From Actinomycetota bacterium (GTDB taxonomy: Bacteria; Actinomycetota; UBA4738; HRBIN12): DNA of 44,178 nucleotides. The position numbers and the translations under genes were made by a program. Position 1 is the stretch's first letter, and the number at the start of each line of letters is the position of its first letter. This document shows positions 11,226 to 20,114 of the stretch, in pieces. The DNA lies in NCBI GenBank assembly GCA_021325015.1, contig JAJPHY010000150.1, forward strand, positions 1 to 44,178. Direction: 5' to 3'. The notes under the pieces are model-generated. The model saw only the letters and a program-made list of their open reading frames with translations. It had not been told where the DNA came from and ran no database searches.

Positions 11226-12719
11226 TCAGCCGTCCTCGGCACCCGATTCCCCATCGGGCAGCCAGAACTCGACCCGCGTGCCCGAGGCCGGTGCACCGGA
11301 GACCTTCAGCCAGCCACCGCATGACTCCGCTCGCTCGCGCATGCTCTCCAGCCCGAGATGCCCCGCGCGCGCGGATCGGTCCGGCCCCAAGCCCTTGCCG
11401 TCGTCGCTCACGTGCACCAGCATCCCCCCGCGCGAGCGCTCGAGAGTCACGTGAACGGAGCGGGCCTCCGCGTGCTTGGCGACGTTCCGGAGGGCCTCTT
11501 GCAGGATCCGGAAGCAGGTCGTGCGCGCCGGCTCGGCCGGCTCGGCCTGCAGCCGGTTCTTCAGGCTCGCCTCAACCCCCGTGTCACGGTGGAGATCGTC
11601 GAGCAGTCCTCGCACGGCGTCGGCGAGCCCTCCGCGTTCGAGGCTCGGCGGCACGAGCTCGAACAGGAGCGTGCGAAGCTCCCGCGTGACGGATTCGGTC
11701 ATGCGCCCGAGCTCCTCGACCGCGGCGACGAGCTCGGAGTCGTCCAAGCGGCTGCGGAGCATCTCAAGCCGGAGTCCCATGGCGACGGCCTTCTGCACGG
11801 GGCCGTCGTGCACTTCGCCGGCGATGCGCCGGTGCTCCTGCTCCCGGGCCTCCACCACGCGCGCGAGCAGGCGCTTGCGGTCCTCGTCGGTCTCCCGGAG
11901 CGCCGAGACGGTCATGCGCAGCACCTGCTCGACCTCCTTGTGGGCGGTGACGTCGACCATCACCCCCTGCCAGAGCTCCGGAGTCGAGGGCACGGGGACG
12001 GCCTCGTCGCGAATCCACACGACGCGCCCGTCGCGAGCGAGCACGCGATACTCGCACCGGAACGGTCGCCCCTCTCGCTGGCACGCCGCCTCCTCCTGGA
12101 GCACCCGATCCCGGTCCTCGGCGTGCAGGTGCGTGGTGAGGGCGTTCTCCTGCATCATCCACTCCTCAGGCGAGTACCCGAGCACGTCGTGGATCCTCGG
12201 GCTCACGTAGAGCCACTGACCCGTCGGGCCGAGGCCCGCCACGTAGACGATGCAGGGGATCTGCTCGACGAGCGTCCGGTACTTCTGCTCGGCTTGCCGG
12301 AGCTCGCGCTCGACCAGCCGGCGCTCGGTGATGTCGATCGCGAAGCCGACGGCGCCCACGATCTGGCCATCCGGCTGCACCTGCGGCACCACGCGCGACA
12401 GAAACGTCCGGTCCATCCAGTCGAGCTCGTAGGTCGCCGCCCGCCCTTGCAACGCGCGCAGGTGAGCGTCGATCGGTGTGAACGTGGCGTCGTCAGTCCC
12501 GAAGAACTCGAAGAGCGTCCGGCCGACGTTCTCGCCGGACTTGGATCCCAGGCCGGCAAGCGCCCCGCCCTCGGACAGCGTGAACCGCAGGTCTCGATCG
12601 ACCGCCCAGATCACCGCGGGCATCTGCCCGATGAGCGTCGGAAAGCGGTCGCCCTCGCGCGGTGCCGAACCGCCCTCGAGCGTCTCTCGGGCCGCGCGAA
12701 CGCCCTCCCCCCCGGCCAT
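11226..12719 (-). CDS. Soluble PAS-PAS sensor histidine kinase (HisKA_3/NarX-like)
   Basis: Two PAS/PAC units, EHRRIAGEVHDGPVQ H-box, EALRNVAKHA N-box, DDGKG, GHLGLESMRERA. Confidence 0.9.
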   Translation of the reverse strand: MAGGEGVRAARETLEGGSAPREGDRFPTLIGQMPAVIWAVDRDLRFTLSEGGALAGLGSKSGENVGRTLFEFFGTDDATFTPIDAHLRALQGRAATYELDWMDRTFLSRVVPQVQPDGQIVGAVGFAIDITERRLVERELRQAEQKYRTLVEQIPCIVYVAGLGPTGQWLYVSPRIHDVLGYSPEEWMMQENALTTHLHAEDRDRVLQEEAACQREGRPFRCEYRVLARDGRVVWIRDEAVPVPSTPELWQGVMVDVTAHKEVEQVLRMTVSALRETDEDRKRLLARVVEAREQEHRRIAGEVHDGPVQKAVAMGLRLEMLRSRLDDSELVAAVEELGRMTESVTRELRTLLFELVPPSLERGGLADAVRGLLDDLHRDTGVEASLKNRLQAEPAEPARTTCFRILQEALRNVAKHAEARSVHVTLERSRGGMLVHVSDDGKGLGPDRSARAGHLGLESMRERAESCGGWLKVSGAPASGTRVEFWLPDGESGAEDG

Positions 12720-12860: not shown

Positions 12861-14570
12861 TCAGGCCTCGGCGACCCCGCTGCCCGGAAGCCAGGCCTCG
12901 ACGGTCGTTCCCGCCCCGGGCCGGCTCTCGATCCGGCTCCAGCCGCCCACCATCTCCGCCCGCTCGCGGATGGAGGTGATGCCGAGATGTCCCGGCCGTC
13001 CGTTGCGCAGAATCTCGGGATCCATGCCGACCCCGTCGTCGCGGACGCGAAGGAAGAGCCCTCCCTCTCGCTCCTCGAGAAGCACGTCGACGCGGCTTGC
13101 CTCGGCATGGCGCTGCACGTTCGACAGGGCCTCTACCGCGATTCGGTAGGCGACCGTCCGGATCCCGTCGGGAGGCTCAGAGATCAGACGGTCCTCGACC
13201 CGGCAGTCGCGGAGCTCGCCCTTGGACAGGTCGACGAACTCCCGAACCGCGGCCACCAGTCCACCGGCGTCGAGCGAAGGAGGACGGAGGTCGAACATCA
13301 TGTGCCGGAGGTGATCGATCGCGAGGCGGACGACGTCTTGGAGTCCGTCGACGATCTCGATCTGTTCGGGATCCGACAGGCTCCGCCGGAGGAGCTGGAG
13401 GCGGAGCCCGACGGCGGTGATCTTCTGAACGGGGTCGTCGTGAATCGCCTCCGCGATCCTGCGCCGCTCGACCTCCTCCGCCGAGACCAGCACCTGGAGC
13501 AGCCGTTGCCGCTCCATGTCGGTGCGCCGCAACAGCTCGAAGCTCTCACGGAGCTCCTCGTCGGCCCTCGTACGGGCCGTGATGTCGAACAACGCGCCCT
13601 GCCAGTAACGCGGCCTCCCATCCGGGTCGTCGACGCGGACGGACTCTTCCTGGATCCAGAGCGTCCGGCCGTCCTTCGCGACGGCTCGGTACTCGGCGCT
13701 GAAAGGGGTGCCCTGCTCGTCCGCCCGGAGGCCGAGCTTGATGATCCGCTCGCGATCGTCCGGGTGCAGGATGCGGTCTGCCCAAAGCGACGGATCTCCC
13801 AGCCACTCCTCGACCGTGTATCCGAGGATGGTCTGCAGCTTGGGGCTTACGTAGAGGGGCCGGATGTCGTCGGGTCCGGGCCCGGTGATCTCGTCGATGT
13901 ACGTGATGGCCGGGAGGCGTTCGACCAGCGTTCGATACCTGGTCTCTGCGTCTCGCGCCTCGCGGACCAGCTCGCCCAGGCGGCCGTGGAAGTCGAGCAG
14001 CAACGCAAGCACGAGCCCCACGGTCGAGATGCCTCCCGCGGTCCGGATCCCGGACACGAACTCCGCAGGAAGCTCTGGCCCGACCGAGACCAGCCGCGCG
14101 ACCAAGAGGGTGGTCGCGGTCCATGCGAAACAGGCCCCGAAGATCGTCCAGTGTCGGGCTTGGCCCGCGTACAGGACCGAGGTGAGGGAGATGAGCAGGG
14201 AGACGCTCACTGGAACGAGCGCGATATCGGGCATCGCGAGCGTGACCACCGTTCCCATCACCAACAGTGAACCCCACAGCATGGTGAGCGCCGAGCGCGA
14301 ACGCCCCAGGTCGACCAGACGTCGACCGATCAAACAGGCGACGCCGGTGGCGGCGGTCGCGGACGCGGTCGCGATCAGCCAGCCGCTGTGGAGCGCCACG
14401 GCGCCTGCGGTGCCGCTGGTCGCGAAGCCGAAGGCAAGGAGTCCGATCCACCCGAGCAGGCGGTGGAGGTTTCGATCGGACACACCCTCCGGTACCTCGA
14501 CGTCCCGGATGCGCTCGACCACCTGAACGGACTCGCCCGCCCCATGCGGACGGTCGAGCGGAACGGTCAT
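12861..14570 (-). CDS. Membrane-bound PAS sensor histidine kinase (HisKA_3/NarX-like)
   Basis: N-terminal multi-TM region, PAS/PAC, ERRRIAEAIHDDPVQ, EALSNVQRHA, DDGVG, GHLGITSIRERA. Confidence 0.9.
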   Translation of the reverse strand: MTVPLDRPHGAGESVQVVERIRDVEVPEGVSDRNLHRLLGWIGLLAFGFATSGTAGAVALHSGWLIATASATAATGVACLIGRRLVDLGRSRSALTMLWGSLLVMGTVVTLAMPDIALVPVSVSLLISLTSVLYAGQARHWTIFGACFAWTATTLLVARLVSVGPELPAEFVSGIRTAGGISTVGLVLALLLDFHGRLGELVREARDAETRYRTLVERLPAITYIDEITGPGPDDIRPLYVSPKLQTILGYTVEEWLGDPSLWADRILHPDDRERIIKLGLRADEQGTPFSAEYRAVAKDGRTLWIQEESVRVDDPDGRPRYWQGALFDITARTRADEELRESFELLRRTDMERQRLLQVLVSAEEVERRRIAEAIHDDPVQKITAVGLRLQLLRRSLSDPEQIEIVDGLQDVVRLAIDHLRHMMFDLRPPSLDAGGLVAAVREFVDLSKGELRDCRVEDRLISEPPDGIRTVAYRIAVEALSNVQRHAEASRVDVLLEEREGGLFLRVRDDGVGMDPEILRNGRPGHLGITSIRERAEMVGGWSRIESRPGAGTTVEAWLPGSGVAEA

Positions 14571-14723
14571 GGCCGGGCTCCTCCTCGCTCGGACGAACCA
14601 TCCATGGCATCGGCGGGGTGCGCGGTCGCCTGTAGCTCACGGGATCCTTGCTCTCGGGGTTGCGGTCGCAGGCGAAGTGTCGATGGGCCGGGCCCCCGGG
14701 GCACATGCGATATGGTCGGGTCG

Positions 14724-14897
14724 ATGGCCGGGACGGAGGCCCCGCACGGGCTGGACGACTTGTCGGACGAGGAGCGGGCCGTGCTCGAGCGGGTGGTCGA
14801 TGTCCTACGGCGCCTGCGGTTCGGCACCGTCCTGCTCGTGGTTCAGGACGGCAAGGTCGTCCAGATCGAGATGGCGGAGAAGATCCGGCTGCGATAG
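14724..14897 (+). CDS. yezD: YezD/DUF2292 (OscA-like) small protein, 57 aa
   Basis: LRFGTVLLVVQDGKVVQIEMAEKIRL matches the family pattern; position upstream of sbp-cysTWA is typical; TATGGT at 14711-14716 suggests a leaderless start at 14724. Confidence 0.85.
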   Translation: MAGTEAPHGLDDLSDEERAVLERVVDVLRRLRFGTVLLVVQDGKVVQIEMAEKIRLR

Positions 14898-14925
14898 CAA
14901 CGCGCGCCCTGGGTTGGAGGCTCCG

Positions 14926-15102
14926 AGGCTCGGTGCCTTGACGAGGCCGGGCCTGAGCGGGTAGCGTGAAGCCCGCTCGGCCGACCGGACGACCGGAGGC
15001 CGGGGTCCCATCGGAAGCGATTGCCTTTCGATTGACCGGACAACCGGAGATCGAGGCTCACTCGGTCATGCCCGAGAACCCGGACCATCGAAAGGAGCCG
15101 AG
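14926..15102 (+). ncRNA. Putative cis-regulatory structured RNA leader of the sulfate transporter (twin YGA-CCGG-ACRA-CCGG-AG hairpins plus anti-SD helix)
   Basis: 16-nt repeat at 14983-14998 and 15034-15049 with one mismatch in the loop, each closed by a different outer stem; 15024-15039 is complementary (14/16) to 15080-15095, which covers the SD. Confidence 0.6.
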
Positions 15103-16185
15103 ATGCGGCCTCGCCCATTCCGGTCGGTATCCCGCCTGATCGTCGCTCTGGTTCCGCTCGCCCTCGTCGCCTCGGCGTGCGGCGGCGGATCCTCGCCCGG
15201 ATCGAACACCTCCCGCGGTCCGTGCACGCCGGCCAAGACGCCGGTCATCAACTTCGCCGCCTACAGCACGCCCCGCGAGGTCTACGGCCAGGTCATCCCC
15301 GCCTTCCAGTCCATGTGGAAGGAGGAGCACGACGGGCAGTCGGTGATCTTCCAGGAGTCCTATGCCGGCTCCACGACGCAGGCGCAGAACGTCATCGCCG
15401 GCTACCCCGCGGACGTCGTGGCGCTGTCGCTCGCACCCGATGTGGACGCGATCAAGGATGCGGGCCTGATCACGCACGACTGGACGCAGGCGCCCGACGG
15501 CGGCATGGTCTCGACCTCGGTCGTGGTCTTCGACGTCCGGCCCGGCAACCCGCTCGGCATCAAGGACTACGACGACCTGACCAAGCCGGGCGTTCAGATC
15601 CTCACCCCCGACCCCGCACAGAGCGGCGGTGCGCGCTGGAACCTCGTGGCGGCCTGGGGCGCGGCCCTCCGCGGGTACGCCGGCGTGCGGAAGGGCGACG
15701 AGGCCGGGGCGGCCGAGCTCCTCAAGGGGATTTTCGAGAACGTGCTCACGCTCGACAAGAGCGCCCGAGACTCGATCCAGAACTTCGAGTCCGGCAACGG
15801 CAACGTCGCGATCACCTACGAAAACGAGGTCAAGACCGCGCAGGAGGCGGGCCTTCCGGATGAGGCCGTGTACCCGCCGTCCACCGTCCTCATCCAGAAC
15901 CCGGTCGCAGTGGTGGACAAGAACGCCGAGGCGCACTGCGTGCTCGACATCGCCAACGCGTTCGTCGATTTCCTGCACACTCCCGAGGTCAAGCAGATGT
16001 ACCTGGAGGCCGGGTACCGGTCGACCGATCTCGCGCTCGCGAAGAAGGGCGATCCCAAGCTCGGCTACCCGCCGATCGGGGATCTGTTCACGGTCGACGA
16101 CTTGGGCGGCTGGCCGGCGCTCGACCAGAAGCTGTTCGGCCCCGACGGGATCGCGACGACGGCCCTCGCCGAGGCCCAGGGCTGA
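15103..16185 (+). CDS. sbp: Sulfate ABC transporter substrate-binding lipoprotein
   Basis: Lipobox LVASAC; QESYAGSTTQAQNV, ADVVALSL, GNPLGIKDYDDL, TPDPAQSGGARWN, ITYENE. Confidence 0.9.
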   Translation: MRPRPFRSVSRLIVALVPLALVASACGGGSSPGSNTSRGPCTPAKTPVINFAAYSTPREVYGQVIPAFQSMWKEEHDGQSVIFQESYAGSTTQAQNVIAGYPADVVALSLAPDVDAIKDAGLITHDWTQAPDGGMVSTSVVVFDVRPGNPLGIKDYDDLTKPGVQILTPDPAQSGGARWNLVAAWGAALRGYAGVRKGDEAGAAELLKGIFENVLTLDKSARDSIQNFESGNGNVAITYENEVKTAQEAGLPDEAVYPPSTVLIQNPVAVVDKNAEAHCVLDIANAFVDFLHTPEVKQMYLEAGYRSTDLALAKKGDPKLGYPPIGDLFTVDDLGGWPALDQKLFGPDGIATTALAEAQG

Positions 16186-19025: not shown

Positions 19026-20114
19026 ATGCATGATGAGCGCGTGATCCGGCGGCGACACGGGTCGGGGCTCCCGCGGGCGGTGGCGCTCGCGGTCGCGCTT
19101 GCGGTGCTGGGGGCGGGGTGCGCGAGCTCCGCCGCCCGTGCACGGGGCAGCGCGGAAGTCCTGCGCCTCGGGGTGTTCGCCACGCTCTCGCACGCCCCGG
19201 CCATCGTCGGTATCGCCTCCGGGATCTTCGCCCGTGAGCTCGCACCGACTCGGGTGGAAGTGCACGTGTTCGGCTCGGGCGTCGATGCCGGGGTCGCGCT
19301 CCTCGCGGGCTCGATCGATGCCGCCTACCTGGGGCCGTGGCCGGCGGTGTCCCTCTTCGTCCGGTCGGGGAAGGTGGCGGTCGTTTCGGGGGCCGCGCTC
19401 GGCGGGGCCTCGCTGATCGTTCGGCGGGGCCTCGGGATCGCGTCCCGTGAGGACCTGCGCGGCCGGAAGGTCGCCGTGCCGGCGATCGGCAACTCCCAGG
19501 ACCTCGCGCTGCGGACCTGGCTCCACGGCGGAGGTCTGCGGGCCACCGACGAGGGCGGCGATGTCTCGATCACGGAGGTGGAGAGCCCCCGACTCCTCCA
19601 GCTCTTCCGCGCCGGACGCTTGGACGGGGCGTGGGCGCCGGAGCCGTACGCGACCTGGCTCGTTCGGGCGGGTGTGGCCGACGAGCTCGTGAACGAGTCC
19701 TCGCTGTGGCCGGGCGGCCGCTTCCCGAGCGCGGTGCTCGTGGTCTCGGCCGGCTATCTCGATGCGCACCCGGGCGTGGTGGAGCGTCTGGTGCGCGCAA
19801 ACGTCGACTCGATCCGCTTTCTGCGGGAGTTCCCCGAGATCGCCAAGAGCGAGCTGGAGCGGGCGCTCGTTCGCGACGGGGCTCCGGCTCTGCCGGCGCG
19901 GGTGATCGCTGCGGCGTGGCGGCGCGTGACGTTCACCTGGGACCCTCTCCCCTCGGCTCTCGAGTCCGTGGCCCGGGACGCCGCGGCCCTCGGCATCCTG
20001 TCGCTCCCGCCTCGAGGGCTCGCCGGACTCGAGCGCCTTGACGCCCTGGAGTCCGTCCTGGACGATGAGGGCCTTCCGCCGCTCGAGATCGGAACGACCA
20101 TGGGGTCCACGTGA
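19026..20114 (+). CDS. ssuA: NitT/TauT-family (SsuA-like) ABC substrate-binding lipoprotein
   Basis: Lipobox LGAGC, LRLGVFATLSHAPA, IDAAYLGPWPA, GNSQDLALR, DGAWAPEP; start position and substrate uncertain. Confidence 0.72.
   Translation: MHDERVIRRRHGSGLPRAVALAVALAVLGAGCASSAARARGSAEVLRLGVFATLSHAPAIVGIASGIFARELAPTRVEVHVFGSGVDAGVALLAGSIDAAYLGPWPAVSLFVRSGKVAVVSGAALGGASLIVRRGLGIASREDLRGRKVAVPAIGNSQDLALRTWLHGGGLRATDEGGDVSITEVESPRLLQLFRAGRLDGAWAPEPYATWLVRAGVADELVNESSLWPGGRFPSAVLVVSAGYLDAHPGVVERLVRANVDSIRFLREFPEIAKSELERALVRDGAPALPARVIAAAWRRVTFTWDPLPSALESVARDAAALGILSLPPRGLAGLERLDALESVLDDEGLPPLEIGTTMGST

Follow-up and report, generated by a model that had tools for sequence, protein, structure and literature searches.

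The 5′ untranslated region (UTR) of sbp, the gene for a sulfate ABC transporter substrate-binding protein, appears to carry a translational RNA switch in an Actinomycetota bacterium (GTDB lineage UBA4738; HRBIN12). The DNA analysed is contig JAJPHY010000150.1 of assembly GCA_021325015.1, positions 1–44,178, and this whole stretch of 44,178 nucleotides (nt) is termed the window; features are on the forward (+) strand unless otherwise noted. Nucleotide positions 15024–15097 probably constitute a translational expression platform, in which a small hairpin stabilised by an effector would be the ON state and a long-range helix covering the Shine-Dalgarno (SD) sequence would be the default OFF state. 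The hairpin recurs before other sulfur-acquisition genes in related genomes, and the leader together with this recurrence points to an undescribed sulfur-responsive RNA switch.

Two competing folds in the sbp leader

Four strands of the leader take part in the predicted structures. Strand a (15024–15039, CCTTTCGATTGACCGG) is the anti-SD segment and also the 5′ half of a hairpin termed hairpin 2; strand b (15044–15055) is the 3′ half of hairpin 2; strand c is at positions 15061–15076; and strand d (15080–15097, CCGGACCATCGAAAGGAG) consists of a pre-SD segment and the SD itself, AAAGGAG, at 15091–15097. The sbp start codon is the ATG at position 15103.

An earlier note on this DNA had pointed to complementarity between strand a and positions 15080–15095 (CCGGACCATCGAAAGG), and the pairing is as it was described. 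Pairs form at 14 of the 16 positions, with mismatches at 15033/15086 and 15035/15084. Nine of them make up a perfect run, 15024–15032 (CCTTTCGAT) with 15087–15095 (ATCGAAAGG), which is all Watson-Crick and covers AAAGG of AAAGGAG; the remaining five are 15034/15085 and 15036–15039/15080–15083. The high G+C content of the leader raises the background of pairing, and the folding z-score of the whole leader is just −2.1 to −2.5, as might be expected if the complementarity had arisen by chance. However, a perfect run of at least 9 nt between the 108-nt upstream leader and positions 15080–15100 was found in 16 of 5000 mononucleotide shuffles, and the duplex of 15020–15039 with 15080–15100 (−19.7 kcal/mol, compared with −9.1 ± 2.7 for shuffled 5′ segments) was matched by 3 of 2000. 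The helix is also in register across 78 and 36 aligned leaders (see below), and this conservation already contradicts a chance origin, which is scarcely credible.

Strand a is needed by hairpin 2 as well, as the earlier note had also stated, through the pairs 15029–15033/15049–15053 (P1) and 15036–15039/15044–15047 (P2). Since the strand is shared, hairpin 2 and the anti-SD (a:d) helix are mutually exclusive. In the predicted OFF fold the 3′ half of hairpin 2 (positions 15045–15055) pairs with 15061–15074; in the predicted ON fold there is a small spacer hairpin, 15062–15066/15072–15076.

The predicted transcript (positions 14972–15125) has a minimum free energy (MFE) structure and a centroid that both hold the a:d helix, along with a further hairpin upstream (hairpin 1). 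The 9-base-pair (bp) run of the a:d helix has a probability of 0.77 and the full set of nine hairpin-2 pairs a probability of 0.005, an ensemble difference of −3.1 kcal/mol. Thus the two near-isoenergetic states that had been looked for are close in energy, but they are not isoenergetic. When positions 14898–15125 were folded, with the untranscribed promoter included, hairpin 2 was formed and the SD was paired to upstream sequence, which shows that the folding context matters.

Folding of transcript prefixes gives an order of events. Prefixes ending at 15055, 15065, 15079, 15086 and 15090 have all nine hairpin-2 pairs in the MFE structure. Those ending at 15095 or later have none of the nine and 14/14 of the a:d pairs, so that the flip from hairpin 2 to the anti-SD helix coincides with the addition of positions 15091–15095. 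This is the behaviour expected of a switch in which the sensor would form first and would be displaced once the SD is transcribed, unless it is held.

A third possible partner of the anti-SD strand had been proposed at positions 15010–15017 (ATCGGAAG). This segment does pair with 15025–15032 over eight positions, with one G·U, but the pairing is not conserved in the family; its predicted occupancy is 0.05. Across 60 two-hairpin leaders, shuffled linkers pair with the anti-SD segment just as well as the real ones (mean z −0.2; z < −2 in 2 of 60).

Conservation of the leader in related genomes

A protein search of 41 related genomes yielded 14 sbp orthologues (L002–L015, E ≤ 3e-109). The same leader plan is found in 13 of the 14, the exception being L006 (11 of 12 without the unpublished genomes L002 and L014). 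From 5′ to 3′ it consists of TTGAC, hairpin 1, hairpin 2 preceded by CCTTTCGRTT, a variable spacer hairpin, (G)ATCGAAAGGAG and the start codon. Both hairpin units in the plan have the form P1-GACCGG-loop-CCGGAG-P1′.

A pattern scan with TCGRTTGACCGGNNNNCCGGAG, using one genome per species, gave at least 120 loci, and all counts of 75, 76 or 77 leaders given here are counts among the matches listed. Among these, 83 loci have loops starting with AC or TC, and the other 37 are in unrelated phyla and have other loops. Six loci (L069, L081, L096, L098, L104 and L114) were dropped by eye for having no SD or second feature. The 77 leaders kept are all from metagenome-assembled genomes of Actinomycetota/Actinomycetes; 76 have an assignable start (L113 is cut off) and 75 are distinct. 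The gene behind the leader belongs to SBP_bac_11 in 39 of the 43 open reading frames long enough to test, the other four being short or cut off.

Two alignments were used to follow the helix. Alignment A1 has 78 rows and was made with MAFFT; alignment A4 has 36 rows (35 distinct) and comes from model R1, which comprises hairpin 2 and the platform, the fit being to hairpin 2 only. The anti-SD pairing is preserved in register in both: 78.0% of the 19 helix pairs are formed in A1, compared with 32%–55% when the strands are slid by 1–3 columns, and 81.6% in A4, compared with 25%–58%. Variation within the helix is compatible with pairing, e.g. A-to-G changes in GAAAGG face U, and columns 20/87 of A4 show GU 26, GC 5, AU 4 and 0 mismatches. 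In A1 hairpin 2 itself is paired in 95.6% of cells, and its P1 pair at columns 20/40 is GC in 72 rows and AU in 6. Strand a is conserved in A1 and A4, and the consensus of its partner, CCGGTCGATCGAAAGGAG, is conserved too; with this partner the entire 5′ half of hairpin 2, beyond its base, can pair with the pre-SD segment and the SD.

RNAduplex was applied to strand a (10 nt + TCGRTT + GACCGG) and all of the RNA downstream of hairpin 2. In 70 of 76 leaders the end of the best duplex is no more than 8 nt from the start codon. Typical energies are −20 to −34 kcal/mol, and the a:d helix has 16–20 bp in many members.

Folding from position −16 of hairpin 2 to the start codon gives 57 of 76 leaders an MFE structure in which strand a pairs downstream. 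The SD is covered in all 57, and the spacer takes up the 3′ half of hairpin 2 in 48 of them. When an 18-nt coding flank is added, 67 of 76 leaders have an MFE structure devoid of all nine hairpin-2 pairs, and one (L068) has the complete set. Of the 76 leaders, 51 favour a forced OFF fold over a forced ON fold, 48 of them by more than 3 kcal/mol; in 21 a preference of more than 3 kcal/mol is for ON. The OFF constraint was derived from RNAduplex, and it fits some rows imperfectly, that of the window included. Comparative and thermodynamic evidence together support the mutually exclusive translational switch that the earlier note had proposed, with hairpin 2 as the putative ON state and the anti-SD helix as the putative OFF state.

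The hairpin unit

Hairpin 1 (positions 14976–15004) consists of P1 (14976–14982/14998–15004), an unpaired GA (14983–14984), P2 (14985–14988/14993–14996), the loop ACGA and an unpaired A (14997). Hairpin 2 (positions 15029–15053), the putative ON-state sensor, has its GA at 15034–15035, the loop ACAA and its A at 15048, with P1 and P2 as given above. Model R2, which represents the hairpin alone, matches hairpin 1 at 40.9 bits and hairpin 2 at 46.5 bits. The general plan of the unit is a P1 stem, a GA/A internal loop, a P2 stem of 4 bp and mostly an ACNN loop, about 29 nt in all.

Alignment A2 comprises 112 distinct hairpin units (57 of hairpin 1, 43 of hairpin 2, 11 of a terminator-type form described below, and hairpin 1 of the window). 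In it, 86.0% of cells are paired and changes on both sides occur at 7 of 11 pairs. Cells changed on both sides number 125, where shuffles give 42.2 ± 8.7, and the covariation score of 0.327 compares with 0.171 for shuffles; neither value was reached in 500 shuffles. Many different P1 sequences are present. P2 is CCGG/CCGG, but CCAG/CUGG in four units, and two hairpin-1 variants lie outside the main P2 form, one with CUGG/CCAG and one with CCCG/CGGG.

The A2 units were gathered by regular expressions requiring GACC.G...C.GGA, and therefore GA, A and most of P2 are invariant in A2 partly by construction. The protein-anchored orthologue leaders are free of this bias and show the same conservation of GA/A and P2. 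Loops of the 112 units are ACCA in 51, ACGA in 10, ACAT in 10 and ACAA in 7, and are 4 nt long in 98. The unpaired GA/A and the first loop bases are kept while the stems covary. The hairpin is a real RNA structure; it is a conserved structured sensor with covariation, a general hallmark of riboswitches.

The repeats GACCGG-N4-CCGGAG could also be regarded as DNA operators for a transcription factor, situated downstream of the promoter, as there are two similar tandem units and each has a short palindromic core, CCGG-N4-CCGG. However, the flanking P1 stems vary and yet stay complementary, which is what the 125 double changes record, and P2 covaries too in the four A2 units and the two variants just described. 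The units are moreover strand-specific and interlocked with SD or terminator strands. Operators are thus a very improbable explanation compared with a structured RNA sensor.

Two other roles for the hairpins were ruled out. A kissing interaction between the two loops does not fit, as the loops (mostly ACCA) are not complementary, and for pairing with the 3′ end of tRNA the CUGG variants alone would fit.

By regular expression, 16 of 75 sbp leaders are without hairpin 1; two of these 16 have a variant hairpin 1. Nine single-hairpin leaders (L030, L051, L064, L072, L074, L085, L092, L125 and L131) have no hairpin 1 upstream of hairpin 2, and in seven of them (L051, L064, L072, L074, L092, L125 and L131) its place is taken by a pair of G+C-rich hairpins that overlap, having the strand CGCCCGC in common. 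The linker from hairpin 1 to the anti-SD segment is about 28–77 nt.

A second platform of the terminator type

Single hairpins of the same kind were found outside sbp leaders, as weak secondary matches of model R1 and as divergent-strand matches of model R2 in public loci. The common form of this terminator-type hairpin, GCAGCUGACCGGACAACCGGAGGCCGC, has an A-C mismatch in P1 that is conserved. A long G+C-rich stem begins with the 3′ P1 strand of the hairpin, and a U-rich run comes after this stem. The MFE structure places the 3′ P1 strand of the hairpin in the downstream stem at 28 of 28 distinct sites, with P1 absent; at least four U occur within the next 9 nt after the stem in 25 of the 28. 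Examples are L036:1449–1560 (+), L055:1420–1500 (+) and L193:107–190 (+), with 25 further sites.

As the predicted terminator overlaps the 3′ strand of the hairpin, a formed hairpin would mean ON here too, the same logic as that of the SD platform, independently arrived at. One sensor is thus joined to two predicted platforms, SD sequestration and an intrinsic terminator, which is a further general hallmark of riboswitches.

Open reading frames behind terminator-type sites encode DUF2292 (4 of 4 small open reading frames tested), a Na_Pi_cotrans-like protein of about 400 amino acids, SsuA-family binding proteins, a SorA/SoxC-like molybdoenzyme (sulfite-dehydrogenase-like) and TauE/SafE. The sites are mostly single hairpins. 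A rhodanese gene in L102 lies behind two tandem hairpins and then a terminator; these two units (L102:1762–1828, +) are back to back about 2 nt apart, the tightest tandem spacing observed. All hairpin-controlled targets acquire or handle inorganic or organic sulfur.

The terminator-type sites also bear on a reversed logic, in which the long a:d duplex or the single-stranded anti-SD strand would be the target, of a double-strand RNase or a repressor, and the hairpin would be the idle form. A helix of the length and predicted energy found in many members is long enough for a double-strand-specific nuclease. Terminator-type sites, however, share the hairpin without having such a long-range duplex, so that the hairpin and not the alternative fold is common to both kinds of site. 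The reversed logic is accordingly rated improbable.

Certain matches were set aside. L186 and L187, weak R1 matches before a DUF2330 gene, were treated as false, as they have the SD block alone and no hairpin. L187 (134–235, +; R1 25.8 bits) displays an sbp-leader-like SD block, GGATCATCGAAAGGAG, ahead of its DUF2330 gene in a genome without an sbp match. Three other exact matches to GACCGG-N4-CCGGAG in the genome of the window are inside long open reading frames, have non-AC loops and were taken as chance occurrences; R2 matches in this genome are confined to the two leader hairpins.

Proposed mechanism and effector

The proposed element is a small sensor hairpin that would act in cis from the 5′ UTR of sbp-cysTWA. 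During transcription, strand a would pair with strand b to form hairpin 2. After strand d has been synthesised, a:d, being the more stable helix and enclosing b:c, would displace hairpin 2 and bury the SD, giving the default OFF state. An effector that recognises P1, the GA/A internal loop, the 4-bp P2 and the ACNN loop would hold a:b together, and the SD would then be single-stranded and sbp translated (ON). Where the hairpin stands ahead of a terminator that needs its 3′ strand, an effector-held hairpin would likewise give ON. Both switching in the cell and the direction of the signal are what we infer from this architecture.

Several observations weigh against it. The OFF fold is dominant at equilibrium in the window (0.77 against 0.005), and in many members its predicted advantage is large, reaching 22 kcal/mol at most, in which case a small ligand could act only kinetically. 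In 6 of 76 leaders the best strand-a duplex is elsewhere, off the SD, and in 19 of 76 strand a is unpaired downstream in the MFE structure. Covariation of the a:d helix does not exceed that of shuffles (the score was reached by 52 of 500 for A1 and by 387 of 500 for A4), so that the evidence for the helix is conserved in-register complementarity only; in A1 the search pattern had determined the 5′ strand of most rows, though not the 3′ strand. A strict sigma-70 scan of positions 14560–15160 gave 0 promoters and 0 terminators. Finally, the hairpin is small (about 29 nt) and has few conserved unpaired bases, and a protein site fits it at least as well as an aptamer.

Part of this evidence would suit a static element without an effector. 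The hairpins would then serve to protect the 5′ end or to mark it, and the translation rate fixed by the a:d helix would be low, constant or dependent on temperature. Equilibrium dominance of the OFF fold in the window, its advantage of more than 3 kcal/mol in 48 of 76 leaders, the lack of helix covariation above shuffles, and the lack of a known ligand or protein are all in accordance with such an element. It would leave unexplained why one hairpin is wired to two mutually exclusive platforms, why the unpaired GA/A and first loop bases are kept while the stems covary, and why the hairpin is found before sulfur-acquisition genes only; nor would there be a purpose in a terminator that forms invariably ahead of a gene. 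A static element is thus considered unlikely, and an effector-dependent switch is preferred.

All of the controlled genes acquire sulfur, and the effector should therefore signal sulfur limitation. We read the element as a sulfur-limitation ON switch whose effector is a metabolite or a protein. A small molecule, e.g. a sulfur-starvation metabolite of the O-acetylserine kind, is a plausible effector that falls somewhat short of an even chance. An RNA-binding protein, for which the co-occurring DUF2292/OscA-like protein is one candidate, is almost as probable. Kinetic control or a protein is favoured by two features, namely how small the hairpin is and how large an advantage is predicted for the OFF fold in many members. 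A small aptamer is also in keeping with the presence of two platforms, of conserved unpaired bases and of tandem copies.

It is tentatively suggested that the hairpin represents a new riboswitch class confined to one order of Actinomycetota: an aptamer of about 29 nt, often in tandem, that would bind a sulfur-limitation metabolite of the O-acetylserine kind and turn ON the sulfur-acquisition regulon by release of the SD or by antitermination. If this is true, the regulon of the new class would include genes for sulfate, sulfonate, sulfite and thiosulfate as well as the one for the OscA-like protein. In a bolder variant, the DUF2292/OscA-like protein itself would be the RNA-binding effector, which, if true, would give a role to a protein family of unknown function.

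Beyond the S-adenosylmethionine (SAM), S-adenosylhomocysteine and T-box systems, we know of no RNA sensor for the branch of sulfur assimilation that concerns sulfate, sulfonate and cysteine supply. Control of sulfur starvation in model bacteria is attributed to DNA-binding proteins. The hairpin described here is compact, covaries strongly, has platforms of two kinds and stands before a clean set of genes, and it is a candidate that can be tested directly. It also connects DUF2292/OscA, an uncharacterised family, with a defined regulatory element.

Comparison with known RNA elements

No match was found in Rfam 15 when the whole window was searched at gathering score. A search of positions 14600–15300 at E ≤ 10 gave chance matches to ALIL and SNORD23 only, both outside the leader, and the hairpins of nine family loci had no match at E ≤ 1. 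No description of such a sulfur-gene leader motif was found in the portion of the literature that was consulted.

The guanidine-II riboswitch (mini-ykkC, RF01068) has two small G+C-rich tandem hairpins with tetraloops that start with AC, and is a translational ON switch whose hairpin state frees the SD. The sbp leader resembles it in all of these respects, the last by prediction, but the likeness is on the surface only and the defining features of guanidine-II are absent. Both guanidine-II hairpins have ACGR tetraloops, compared with 10 of 112 units here (ACCA being found in 51), and the loops of the two hairpins here are not complementary. Its two hairpins are obligatory, whereas 16 of 75 leaders here have a single one by regular expression. 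The conserved unpaired bases here are in the GA/A internal loop, and guanidine-II controls guanidine detoxification/export genes rather than sulfur-uptake genes; as noted, there is no Rfam match.

In the add adenine riboswitch, a strand of the sensor is the anti-SD strand, the sensor forms first, and the ligand-free RNA relaxes to an SD-paired fold. The sbp leader is like add and other SD-sequestering ON riboswitches in that a strand of the sensor helix doubles as the anti-SD and that the sensor is predicted to form first in transcription. It differs in having one 29-nt hairpin in place of a three-way junction, and no sequence or model similarity was found.

RAT sites of the BglG/SacY type are short imperfect hairpins whose 3′ strand is the 5′ strand of a terminator, and stabilisation of the hairpin leads to read-through. 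The likeness lies in the 28 of 28 terminator-type sites, where the hairpin overlaps the 5′ strand of the terminator, and not in the SD-type site of the window. ANTAR targets are tandem hairpins, as are many of the units here, but ANTAR hairpins are adjacent and have hexaloops, whereas 98 of 112 loops here are 4 nt long and the linkers are about 28–77 nt. Unlike RAT and ANTAR elements, the sbp form would act on the SD and not on a terminator. By analogy, the architecture would work like an SD-sequestering ON riboswitch at sbp and like an antiterminator hairpin at the other sites.

SAM riboswitches of Actinomycetota (e.g. SAM-IV) are OFF switches on methionine/SAM genes with large pseudoknotted aptamers. 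They share with the sbp leader the phylum and the property of being cis-acting leader RNAs on sulfur-related genes; the leader here is ON by its architecture, stands before uptake genes and matches no SAM model of Rfam.

Putative promoter region and predicted transcript

A promoter-like block is present at positions 14938–14967, with TTGACG at 14938–14943, an 18-nt spacer and TAGCGT at 14962–14967. From it we infer that transcription of sbp starts near 14972–14976.

The block is found throughout the family. TTGAC is located 42–50 nt 5′ of the first hairpin in 14 of 14 leader-bearing sbp loci, the window included, and no more than 75 nt upstream of it in 68 of 75 leaders. TTGACN followed by 17–19 nt and TANNNN (e.g. 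TATCCA, TACTTC, TATCTC) is present in 59 of 75 leaders, and 52 of these 59 blocks end 12–22 nt before the GACCGG of the first hairpin. This position would place the first hairpin at the extreme 5′ end of the mRNA. The hexamer at −10 departs from the canonical form; under the stricter criterion TANNNT one of 75 leaders fits, namely that of the window itself. In general the family block displays a near-perfect TTGACA, 17–18 nt and a non-canonical TAYYYN hexamer, often with GG before it. The conserved block may mark the site of a particular sigma factor or activator of the sulfur regulon.

Distribution and gene context

Model R1 has matches in 87 of the 151 genomes of the class sample (81 of 144 without seven unpublished genomes); by family the numbers are 73 of 115, 5 of 6, 2 of 2, 3 of 10, 3 of 13, 0 of 3 and 0 of 1. 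Model R2 has matches in 102 of 151 genomes (96 of 144), with up to six sites per genome.

DUF2292 (PF10055) is found in 98 genomes of the 151-genome sample. The hairpin and PF10055 searches were assumed to share this one sample, as the per-family denominators are identical. Both features are present in 95 of 151 genomes (90 of 144 without the unpublished ones), the hairpin only in 7 (five of them at an E-value of 0.002 or worse; 6 of 144), DUF2292 only in 3 (3 of 144) and neither in 46 (45 of 144). Related genomes are not independent in these counts and both features belong to one regulon; the co-occurrence shows linkage and does not make the protein the effector.

A DUF2292 gene is within 1.2 kb of the leader, in either orientation, in 24 of 51 full-length public loci, and divergent DUF2292 genes have their own terminator-type hairpin. 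The gene is often the last in a hairpin-controlled Na/Pi-like operon, or is divergent to sbp with its own hairpin. In the window, a gene at positions 14724–14897 encodes a DUF2292/OscA-like protein of 57 amino acids (PF10055, E-value = 5.2e-16) and adjoins the leader on its 5′ side. Its product scores 37.2 bits against the NCBIfam entry "sulfur starvation response protein OscA", under the cut-off of 85. A search of PDB with the sequence gave a best E-value of 0.68. The AlphaFold model (pLDDT 69.3, pTM 0.38) displays one helix and a beta-hairpin, and Foldseek found 0 matches to it in PDB at E ≤ 0.001.

The sbp gene itself (positions 15103–16185) matches TIGR00971 at 214.4 bits (cut-off 155.5) and also PF13531. 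The proposed leader switch would account for the gap of 205 nt that separates sbp from the DUF2292 gene.

Upstream of the DUF2292 gene and on the opposite strand are two adjacent genes for PAS-HisKA_3 histidine kinases, at positions 11226–12719 (−) and 12861–14570 (−). This pair is not kept beside the leader in the other loci examined.

On the 3′ side of sbp, profile matches identify CysT-, CysW- and CysA-like genes and then a gene for an SsuA-family sulfonate-binding protein (positions 19026–20114, +), which follows cysA. In other genomes, unlike the window, ssuA has its own terminator-type hairpin. With ssuA downstream of cysA, the sbp leader may govern sulfonate uptake here too.

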